From a virus (Duplodnaviria; Heunggongvirae; Uroviricota; Caudoviricetes), in the IMG/VR virus record IMGVR_UViG_3300035696_000002: a DNA stretch of 64,000 bases; one strand, written 5' to 3'. The notes beneath the pieces were generated by a model. That model was not told the origin of the DNA. It made no database searches and was given only the letters and a program-made list of their open reading frames with translations. Shown piece by piece: positions 31,345 to 31,843 of the stretch. The stretch's first letter is position 1. Each line of letters begins with the position of its first letter. The position numbers were made by a program, and so were the translations under genes.

Positions 31345-31395
31345 TGGTGGGCGGTGAAGACTTTCATCCCCGGTGGTTTCCCACTTTTACCGCCC
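31345..31395 (-). ncRNA. 51-nt mini tRNA-like RNA, copy 2
   Basis: GGGCGGT-AAAA-GTGG(GAAA)CCAC-C-GGGGAT(GAAA)GTCTTC-ACCGCCC-ACCA. Confidence 0.75.
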
Positions 31396-31396
31396 G

Positions 31397-31446
31397 TGTG
31401 CCCTCAAGAGCATCTTAACCAACTTAACGTGCTCTTGAGAGCATAT
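31397..31446 (-). other. Long hairpin spacer in the tRNA-like array
   Basis: TGCTCTCAAGAGCA...TGCTCTTGAGGGCA inverted repeat. Confidence 0.5.
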
Positions 31447-31448
31447 CT

Positions 31449-31524
31449 TGGCTCCGGGGGAAGGAATTGAACCTCCATCCCCGAGGCTTTCGCCCCGGTG
31501 CTCTTGCAGTTGAGCTACCCCGGA
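31449..31524 (-). ncRNA. tRNA-like RNA with anticodon loop replaced by a GAAA tetraloop
   Basis: Acceptor, D and T arms present; arm CCGGGGC-GAAA-GCCTCGG; G-CCA. Confidence 0.75.
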
Positions 31525-31527
31525 ATA

Positions 31528-31601
31528 TGGAGCCCGTTGAAGGAGTTGAACCCCCGACCTCTCCGTTAAAAACGGAGTGCTCTGCACTGAGCTAAACGGG
31601 C
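31528..31601 (-). tRNA. tRNA with UUU (Lys) anticodon and Thr-like body
   Basis: CTCCG-TTTTTAA-CGGAG; GCCCGTT/AACGGGC; T-CCA; D-loop lacks GG. Confidence 0.7.
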
Positions 31602-31612
31602 ACTTACAAACT

Positions 31613-31756
31613 TGGTGGACGCCTGAGGATTCGAACCTCCGGCTTTCACAGATTACTCACGCGGTACTCGTCGCGACGTTTCCCGTGCTTTCAATCAGCC
31701 TTACCCGGCTCTGTGAAATGCTGTCCGCTTGAAGCGGGCCATAACAGCGTGCGTCC
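31613..31756 (-). ncRNA. 144-nt tRNA-like RNA with a multi-hairpin insertion in place of the anticodon loop
   Basis: GGACGC/GCGTCC-ACCA, GAGG-TTCGAAT-CCTC T-arm, TTTCACAGA/TCTGTGAAA stem enclosing ~55 nt. Confidence 0.65.
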
Positions 31757-31793
31757 GTTATAAAAGACATTCGTCTTTTATTTCATACAAACT

Positions 31794-31843
31794 TGGTGGG
31801 CGGTGATGCCTTCCGGCACCCAGCTTTCGCTGCTTTACCGCCC
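31794..31843 (-). ncRNA. 50-nt mini tRNA-like RNA, copy 1
   Basis: GGGCGGT-AAAG-CAGC(GAAA)GCTG-GGTGCC(GGAA)GGCATC-ACCGCCC-ACCA. Confidence 0.75.

Follow-up and report, generated by a model that had tools for sequence, protein, structure and literature searches.

Two conserved minihelix-like RNA elements with a tRNA-Val-type acceptor in a phage tRNA array: candidate mimics of the tRNA acceptor end

The 64,000-nucleotide stretch analyzed here (the window, G000:207749-271748) is part of the 463,033-bp IMG/VR phage record IMGVR_UViG_3300035696_000002 (G000), which is rated complete by CheckV and has a GC content of about 55%. Over the whole genome, ARAGORN reports 68 tRNA genes and a permuted transfer-messenger RNA (tmRNA), in arrays grouped by amino acid. 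One sub-array of the window holds two small elements, mini1 and mini2, which end in a tRNA-like acceptor stem, a discriminator A, and an encoded CCA. An initial annotation made from the sequence alone had described both, and both are real; they lie on the minus strand and are composed as follows.

31794-31843, minus strand: mini1, 50 nt, 80.6 bits to covariance models R1/R2
31843-31837, acceptor 5' strand GGGCGGU; 31836-31833, linker AAAG; 31832-31821, hairpin 1 (CAGC-GAAA-GCUG); 31820-31805, hairpin 2 (GGUGCC-GGAA-GGCAUC); 31804-31798, acceptor 3' strand ACCGCCC; 31797-31794, ACCA
31345-31395, minus strand: mini2, 51 nt, a paralogue of mini1, 68 bits to R2
31395-31389, acceptor 5' strand GGGCGGU; 31388-31385, linker AAAA; 31384-31373, hairpin 1 (GUGG-GAAA-CCAC); 31372, C; 31371-31356, hairpin 2 (GGGGAU-GAAA-GUCUUC); 31355-31349, acceptor 3' strand ACCGCCC; 31348-31345, ACCA

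For both minis, the structure first described is the minimum-energy fold and also the centroid computed with RNAfold. None of 200 shuffled sequences folded as well as mini1 (-28.8 kcal/mol, z-score -4.5), and 2 of 200 did so for mini2 (-23.5 kcal/mol, z-score -2.8). The identical GGGCGGT/ACCGCCC acceptor, A discriminator, and CCA claimed for the two copies can be read directly from the sequence, and neither copy has a D-loop, T-loop, or anticodon, as had been stated; where a cloverleaf would have a D-loop, a 7-nt anticodon loop, and a T-loop, the minis show only two tetraloop hairpins. The linker given as AAA is indeed unpaired and A rich, but its length is 4 nt. Likewise, the two hairpins (4 bp with GAAA; 6 bp with GNRA) are present as described, but hairpin 2 includes G.U pairs, one of which, its second pair, is invariant across homologues. 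Since hairpin 2 (5 to 6 bp) meets the 3' acceptor strand with 0 nt in between, it should stack on the acceptor, yielding a predicted helix of 12 to 13 bp. Such stacking would reproduce the coaxial acceptor and T-stem of about 12 bp, ending in NCCA, of laboratory minihelices. In contrast to the latter, which have a T-loop (UUCRANY) and a single hairpin, the minis have a GNRA loop (6 nt in the related contig L004), a second hairpin, and a 4-nt linker.

ARAGORN calls neither mini. Rfam gives no match on them at gathering scores, RF00005 included, and an Rfam cmscan at E<=10 over 31000-31960 placed no family on them, the mascRNA-menRNA family RF01684 included, and returned one chance-level partial match. 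With neither tRNA finders nor Rfam seeing them, the minis fall into an annotation blind spot. No open reading frame (ORF) of at least 80 aa overlaps either element. Matches to a generic descriptor, NCCA preceded by any 7-bp stem, were not enriched genome-wide (25 versus 14 in a reversed-sequence control), and therefore the signal resides in the specific mini family and not in the generic shape. Two other origins were rejected: an integration-site (att) remnant, since the minis have both acceptor strands and lack a T-loop, and a reverse-transcription primer, the mini 3' 11-mer having no extra complementary site in the genome.

Homologues with covariation, for which the initial annotation had suggested a covariance-model search, are present in related phages. 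They lie in about eight other phage contigs, and every copy keeps an intact acceptor, discriminator A, and CCA. Three independent routes led to them. Acceptor-anchored patterns identified L003 and L004 (the latter a 455-kb phage, G001) in a viral scan and L017, L023, L024, and L027 in a metagenome scan, in which about 17 of the 25 matches were discarded as chance or coding (such as L019, inside a 515-aa ORF). Synteny, followed via a 216-aa ORF, led to L031, L032, and L033, where the homologue of this ORF is 79%, 73%, and 62% identical, respectively, and where a mini lies downstream in each case. Finally, a hairpin-only pattern with a free acceptor yielded L040 and, again, the L033 phage. Acceptor invariance is not a search artefact, because four loci (L031, L032, L033, and L040) were found without fixing the acceptor. 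No further copies were found by models R1 and R2 in G000, G001, or G004, and no mini was seen within 5 kb in L034-L039, in which the homologue of the 216-aa ORF is at most 57% identical; these phages may lie outside the sub-clade that has the family, or their array may have moved. In the related-locus search, the 216-aa ORF had no match among viral contigs, and a DUF7178 protein matched one contig (L005), without tRNAs; a blastn search of the INPHARED phages returned ordinary tRNA similarities only and no related phage.

Nine distinct copies were aligned to one structure by model R1. In this alignment, 98.7% of the cells are paired (33 to 71% in slid controls), five pairs are altered on both sides, and none of 500 shuffles reaches any of five measures. 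All nine copies have the 7-bp acceptor, the discriminator base, and the 3' CCA, with GGGCGGU/ACCGCCC and ACCA identical throughout. Hairpin 1 occurs as CAGC/GCUG, CGGC/GCCG, or GUGG/CCAC and hairpin 2 as GGUGCC/GGCAUC, GGUGA/UCAUC, or GGGGAU/GUCUUC, and the loops vary inside GNRA (GAAA/GCAA in the former; GGAA/GAAA/GUAA/GCAA in the latter), with the exception of the 6-nt loop of L004. The core has been remodelled at least four times: in mini2 both stems are altered with compensation, in L004 hairpin 2 has 5 bp, in L017 (same acceptor, leading AAA) hairpin 1 is reduced to 2 bp (GC-GAAA-GC), and L027 (same acceptor, leading AAA) has a different, 63-nt core with a T-arm-like hairpin, GGUGG-UUCGAGU-CCACC. 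The early proposal that compensatory change between copies reflects selection on structure, not decay, thus holds in the larger alignment. Judged from these comparisons, the mini is a real RNA gene under selection in a clade of huge phages, and the acceptor sequence is its most tightly constrained part.

To which tRNA this acceptor corresponds can be read from bacterial genomes. Species-representative genomes were scanned for full-size tRNAs with GGGCGGU, a T-loop, and ACCGCCC-A, which gave at least 120 loci, from which 82 tRNAs were extracted. Among the matches listed, 79 of the 82 bacterial tRNAs with the mini acceptor and A73 are tRNA-Val (43 UAC, 22 GAC, and 14 CAC), the remaining three being tRNA-Tyr (two) and tRNA-Lys (one); the phyla represented include Proteobacteria, Actinomycetota, Chloroflexota, Acidobacteriota, Planctomycetota, and Verrucomicrobiota. 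On this count, the mini acceptor is, at the level of sequence, that of bacterial tRNA-Val, and a widespread one. It differs from the acceptors of the phages' own tRNA-Val genes, which are GCACUGU (twice) and ACGCGGG in G000 and UGCCCGG, GUGCUGU, and GCGCGGC in G001; GGGCGGU is found on no full-size tRNA of either genome. Valine identity depends on A73 and above all on A35 and C36, with contributions from G3-C70 and U4-A69 (PMC9976931). The mini has A73 and G3-C70 and, without an anticodon loop, lacks A35 and C36. The features that give tmRNA its alanine identity, G3.U70 together with a T-arm, are not those of the mini, in which pair 3-70 is G3-C70 and there is no T-loop.

The valine-type acceptor, together with the 4-bp D-stem-like hairpin and the T-arm-like hairpin of L027, suggests a descent from tRNA genes by loss of loops and arms, and one could imagine that the minis are functionless, as remnants of a decaying tRNA-Val gene or as chance structures. 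We disfavour this explanation as very improbable: the mini is kept in about nine phage contigs over a span in which the flanking protein diverged to 62% identity and neighbouring tRNA-like genes changed their acceptors, its stem changes are compensatory with loops that stay GNRA, and no copy has a damaged acceptor, discriminator, or CCA.

The sub-array that contains the minis and the genes around it comprise the following features.

30999-31919, minus strand: sub-array holding both minis
30999-31072, 31155-31229, and 31241-31317, minus strand: three distinct tRNA-CUA (amber suppressor) genes
31399-31443, minus strand: 14-bp hairpin in the spacer between tRNA-like gene B and mini2 (minimum free energy -26.5, z-score -5.3)
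31449-31524, minus strand: anticodon-less full-size tRNA-like gene B, upstream of mini2, anticodon arm capped by GAAA
31528-31601, minus strand: tRNA-Lys(UUU), a conserved member of the sub-array
31762-31779, minus strand: A+U-rich terminator-like hairpin AAAAGAC-GAAU-GUCUUUU with a U tail, after the mini1 trailer AGUUUGUA
31845-31919, minus strand: anticodon-less full-size tRNA-like gene A, anticodon arm capped by the tetraloop CUCG, 52.6 bits to RF00005
31982-32632, minus strand: conserved 216-aa ORF directly upstream of the array, the synteny anchor (47 homologues; AlphaFold2 predicted local distance difference test [pLDDT] score of 85)
32611-32934, minus strand: Pth2-like gene, kept two genes upstream of the array (ESM Atlas lead; weak PF01981 match of the G001 orthologue)
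35103-35448: permuted tmRNA, a gene separate from the minis

Gene order is kept across phages. It starts with the Pth2-like gene, the 216-aa ORF, and, in some phages, a 12- to 13-bp GNRA minihelix ending in ACCA; it continues with tRNA-Lys(UUU), an anticodon-less full-size tRNA, a spacer of 1 to 3 nt, and the mini; and it ends with an RNA of about 144 nt that has a T-arm and an acceptor, followed by two to three tRNA-CUA genes. The window has two units of anticodon-less tRNA and mini. In the first, tRNA-like gene A ends in ACCA 1 nt ahead of mini1, and the same dyad, tRNA-like gene and then mini, is seen in most relatives.

Several side observations concern these anticodon-less genes. In relatives, they lie at L004 8040-8115(-), L023 ~428-500(-), L024 ~1343-1420(-), and L040 5529-5619(+), with anticodon arms capped across the set by CUCG, GAAA, GCAA, or GUUA and with an inserted hairpin in L040. 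Such a gene is found directly ahead of the mini in most of the related contigs examined, and an ordinary-looking tRNA takes this place in L004 and L032. Unlike that of the mini, their acceptors differ among phages. The idea that gene A is a tRNA-Val paralogue was rejected: it shares only the acceptor with the phage tRNA-Val(UAC), and the related tRNA-Lys of L023 has the same stem.

CCA is encoded in nearly all 68 tRNAs of G000, and most are then followed by AGUUU, AAUUU/AUUU, or UUUU; in addition, many are preceded by UUU or CAU. Across the arrays, these flanks look like a common signature of processing or spacing. The minis have the same AGUUU/AUUU trailer as the genuine tRNAs and an encoded CCA, and in most loci they start 1 to 3 nt after the preceding CCA; they therefore look like substrates of the same maturation pathway. 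The phage also encodes a class A RNase P RNA (RF00010, 208 bits, E 5e-67) at G000:305811-306131 (L043 1812-2132, plus strand), within a Val/Gly/Ala/Asp/Cys tRNA array; no mention of a phage RNase P RNA turned up in the literature searched, including a term search of the huge-phage survey paper. A 453-aa ORF at G000:461074-461502 (plus strand) has a PF01743 CCA-adding/poly(A) polymerase head domain (118 bits).

This arrangement raises the question of whether the mini works only in cis, as an extra RNase P or 3'-end site that trims the adjacent tRNA-like RNA and protects the 3' end of the operon, with no role after release. The close spacing behind the preceding CCA, the RNase P RNA of the phage, and the position of the mini just before the terminator-like hairpin in four phages (that of the window, L004, L024, and L031) would all suit such a module. 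However, the order is not constant: the hairpin precedes the mini in L033, none was seen beside the mini in L040 or L032, and mini2 lies in the middle of the array behind a separate 14-bp hairpin. Moreover, the flanking tRNA-shaped genes already supply RNase P sites, so that a further one would be redundant, and RNase P needs a shape rather than a particular stem sequence, whereas the acceptor of the mini is invariant and specifically that of tRNA-Val. We regard a purely cis-acting role as unlikely.

The gene kept two positions upstream of the array is of interest for a different possibility, that of a charged mini. The protein encoded by this gene has an ESM Atlas score of 0.94 to clusters in which 21 to 55% of the members have PF01981, and its G001 orthologue has a weak match to the same profile; these two leads are the basis of the tentative name Pth2-like. 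The window protein itself has no Pfam match and no PDB sequence match, and its AlphaFold2 model is of low confidence (pLDDT 52.6); a clear PTH2 gene is found elsewhere in G000. Within the window (32611-32960, minus strand), an in-frame TAG lies just upstream of the conserved N-terminal strand of the Pth2-like frame (..AML*VQPYFYVFVRQD), and in L031 and L033 the frame is open upstream. The neighbouring 216-aa ORF has no PDB fold match with its AlphaFold2 model and no PDB sequence match.

Host valyl-tRNA synthetase (ValRS) could load valine on the mini, and the charged RNA could bind EF-Tu, donate its valine to a non-ribosomal acceptor, or be a substrate for, or a regulator of, the Pth2-like hydrolase encoded nearby. 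The acceptor is of the tRNA-Val type with the determinants A73 and G3-C70, its invariance is what recognition by a synthetase would be expected to produce, and a regular 12- to 13-bp coaxial helix with an encoded CCA is the classical shape of a minihelix substrate. Two genes upstream lies the conserved Pth2-like gene, which would belong to a family of hydrolases that cleave esters at the 3' end of tRNA. EF-Tu binds aminoacyl-minihelices, and Frugier and colleagues are said to have observed, in 1992, that yeast ValRS charges an anticodon-less minihelix, although weakly. The strongest valine determinants, A35 and C36, are absent, however, and likewise G20 and G45 (PMC9976931), and charging of the mini should therefore be orders of magnitude weaker than that of tRNA-Val. 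Furthermore, neither ValRS nor any other class Ia synthetase that could have been adapted to the mini was found in G000 or G001. The aminoacylatable minihelix proposed in the initial annotation is consequently retained in reduced form: without A35 and C36, the main determinants (PMC9976931), the mini is doubtful as an efficient substrate for valylation, and a functional, chargeable mini seems to us an improbable explanation.

The reading that we favour, tentatively and at somewhat less than an even chance, is that the mini is a processed, trans-acting mimic of the acceptor end of host tRNA-Val, competing for a factor that reads the acceptor and CCA. From the observed sequence, fold, conservation, covariation, valine-type acceptor, and genomic context, we infer its transcription, processing, stability, trans-acting mode, and type of partner. 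Each mini gene would be transcribed as part of the phage tRNA operon and would yield a small stable RNA, probably excised in the manner of a tRNA, with RNase P cleaving at G1 and the AGUUU/GAUUU trailer then being trimmed to the encoded CCA. The fold is predicted to be a three-way junction, in which hairpin 2, stacked on the acceptor stem, would form a minihelix resembling the acceptor/T-arm limb of a tRNA and hairpin 1 would be a small D-stem-like stub. A limb of 12 to 13 bp is recognized by RNase P, the CCA-adding enzyme, EF-Tu, several synthetases, and acceptor-end toxins. The tRNA end displayed by the mini would be that of bacterial tRNA-Val (acceptor stem, A73, and CCA), presumably the tRNA-Val of the host. 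Because it has no anticodon, elbow, or T-loop, it cannot decode, and it would act in trans as a decoy or sponge, competing as ligand or substrate for a host factor reading the acceptor stem and CCA. Lack of an anticodon also makes RelA, one of the ligand partners first proposed, an unlikely one.

The best candidates for a partner would be acceptor-end antiphage effectors of the toxSAS, MenT/AbiEii, or Cas12a3 kind. FaRel2 reads the acceptor pairs 1-72, 2-71, 4-69, and 5-68 and efficiently modifies synthetic minihelices (PMC11559606), and Cas12a3 cleaves the CCA tails of truncated acceptor-stem hairpins (PMC12851939); the MenT nucleotidyltransferases are a further published example of effectors of this type. 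A decoy would spare the tRNAs that the phage needs, whose own tRNA-Val genes carry other acceptor stems; this difference between the stems thus fits the mimic. A core that is repeatedly remodelled around a fixed acceptor likewise argues for a sequence-reading partner rather than a shape-only processing role. Finally, the anticodon-less tRNAs, tRNA-Lys(UUU), the three amber suppressors, the Pth2-like gene, the tmRNA, and the CCA-adding/poly(A) polymerase-family gene support a context of tRNA-end maintenance or conflict.

Several points weigh against a mimic of this kind. The literature searched contained no effector specific for a tRNA-Val-type acceptor, and we know of none. The FaRel2 determinants C2-G71 and G4-C69 are absent from the mini, and E. 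coli tRNA-Val is a poor FaRel2 substrate (PMC11559606); Cas12a3 tolerates stem changes (PMC12851939), so that the invariance of the stem would be left unexplained. The invariant acceptor would be accounted for equally well if ValRS, or an enzyme of the phage, recognized it. The term "host tRNA-Val" derives from the pan-bacterial pattern. Conservation among orthologues is high over the entire RNA, and it is mainly mini2, L004, L017, and L027 that set the acceptor apart from the core. In addition, with one or two genes for it in each genome, the mini might not reach the amount required to titrate an enzyme, unless it were highly abundant or bound very tightly.

A broader proposal would accommodate either partner: the mini may be a natural minihelix-Val, a stable, processed 50-nt RNA with the acceptor and CCA of host tRNA-Val that is read sequence-specifically by a host protein. 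In its effector version, an as yet unknown immune effector that inactivates the 3' end of tRNA-Val could be soaked up by the mini; in its ValRS version, a charged, non-decoding RNA could be passed to EF-Tu or to the Pth2-like enzyme encoded nearby. The minis and the anticodon-less tRNAs next to them would then constitute phage "acceptor-end mimics", a class apart from replacement tRNAs. This is possible, although we would place it on the unlikely side.

The mini can be compared with several known systems. Like the synthetic acceptor/T-arm minihelices (minihelix-Ala, -Val, -His, and -Gly), which are minimal substrates of synthetases, RNase P, the CCA-adding enzyme, EF-Tu, and the toxSAS FaRel2, it has a 12- to 13-bp coaxial acceptor-type helix (predicted), a discriminator and CCA, no anticodon, and an acceptor stem with the identity of one tRNA species, in this case valine. 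It differs from them in being natural, genome encoded, and conserved, in having a GNRA tetraloop (6 nt in L004) in place of the T-loop, and in its extra 4-bp GAAA/GCAA hairpin and A-rich linker, which create the three-way junction. The valine tRNA-like structure (TLS-Val) of plant viruses such as turnip yellow mosaic virus (TYMV) is likewise viral RNA with a CCA end and a likeness to tRNA-Val. However, TLS-Val is the 3' end of an RNA genome, with a pseudoknotted acceptor arm and an anticodon loop whose CAC determinants are needed for valylation (PMC9976931), whereas the mini, which lacks an anticodon loop and has an ordinary helical acceptor stem, is encoded by a DNA phage as a gene of its own.

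Small, non-decoding, tRNA-shaped RNAs that end in CCA and are released by tRNA-processing enzymes, as is predicted for the mini, include mascRNA and menRNA (MALAT1/NEAT1 3' modules, RF01684), along with tRNA punctuation. The former are eukaryotic cloverleaves that keep the T-loop and receive CCA after cleavage; the mini has an encoded CCA and the acceptor of a specific tRNA identity. The tRNAs that T5 deploys against PARIS and retron effectors are, like the mini, products of phage tRNA-array genes that plausibly answer a host attack on tRNAs, and the presence of tRNA-Lys(UUU) in the same sub-array is a further likeness to the T5 evasive isoacceptors. Those tRNAs are functional in decoding and replace damaged host tRNAs, whereas the mini, being unable to decode, could not replace a tRNA and would need to compete instead. 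An acceptor stem and CCA on a much-reduced tRNA shape are also found in the armless mitochondrial tRNAs of nematodes and in the tRNA-like domain of tmRNA; unlike the mini, the first keep the anticodon arm and decode, and the second has G3.U70 alanine identity and a T-arm.

The claim that the elements form an undescribed class stands: there is no Rfam family match, and no description of a natural phage minihelix of this kind was found in the literature searched. To judge from its sequence, the family would be a natural, valine-type member among tRNA mimics and minihelices, itself a known kind. For 35 years, minihelices have been laboratory tools for learning what synthetases, RNase P, EF-Tu, and, lately, antiphage toxins read in the acceptor end. 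If the mini RNA accumulates, phages would have naturally evolved and maintained a minihelix with the identity of one particular tRNA, which would offer a handle on how phages answer defences that hit the CCA end or acceptor stem rather than the anticodon. Its valine identity makes the hypotheses directly testable.

Other small elements were noticed in and around the arrays. The RNA of about 144 nt (31613-31756, minus strand) combines ACCA and a canonical T-arm (GGAGGUUCGAAUCCUC) with an acceptor of 6 to 7 bp, GGACGC/GCGUCC; it is conserved in L023, L024, L031, and L033, some copies ending in ACCG, and has no Rfam family match. Between two tRNA-CUA genes lies a 79-nt rod-like RNA (31075-31153, minus strand) with an acceptor GUCGAGG/CCUCGGC, a long stem, a UUCG hairpin, and ACCA; support for it is weak, the fold of 31073-31147 (which omits most of the 5' acceptor strand) being indistinguishable from shuffles (z-score -0.2). 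The 12- to 13-bp minihelix that heads the same array in relatives (L004 8113-8148(-), L023 583-617(-), and L031 5638-5672(+); GGGUG...GCCCACCA) is rich in G.U pairs, closed by GAAA/GCAA, and ends in ACCA; it is absent at that place in the window.

Elsewhere in G000, a 300-nt spacer between tRNA-Ala and tRNA-Val (307319-307618, plus strand) holds two more RNAs that end in CCA followed by AGUUU, neither called by ARAGORN and one with a T-arm (CGGGUUCGAUUCCCG). About 2.2 kb upstream of the PF01743 gene, at G000:458800-458841 (plus strand), the descriptor search returned an element of the form GGUCAGU-AAA-hairpin-ACUGGCC-ACCA, without support from R2, which may be due to chance. As for the amber suppressors, TAG is a stop and is not reassigned genome-wide, because TAG read-through lengthens ORFs no more than TAA read-through does. 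In a related phage, a tRNA beside tRNA-CUA (L033 6935-7014(+), equivalent to L041 2941-3020) has an 8-nt anticodon loop, read by ARAGORN as CUAG, and may be a four-base (quadruplet) decoder.

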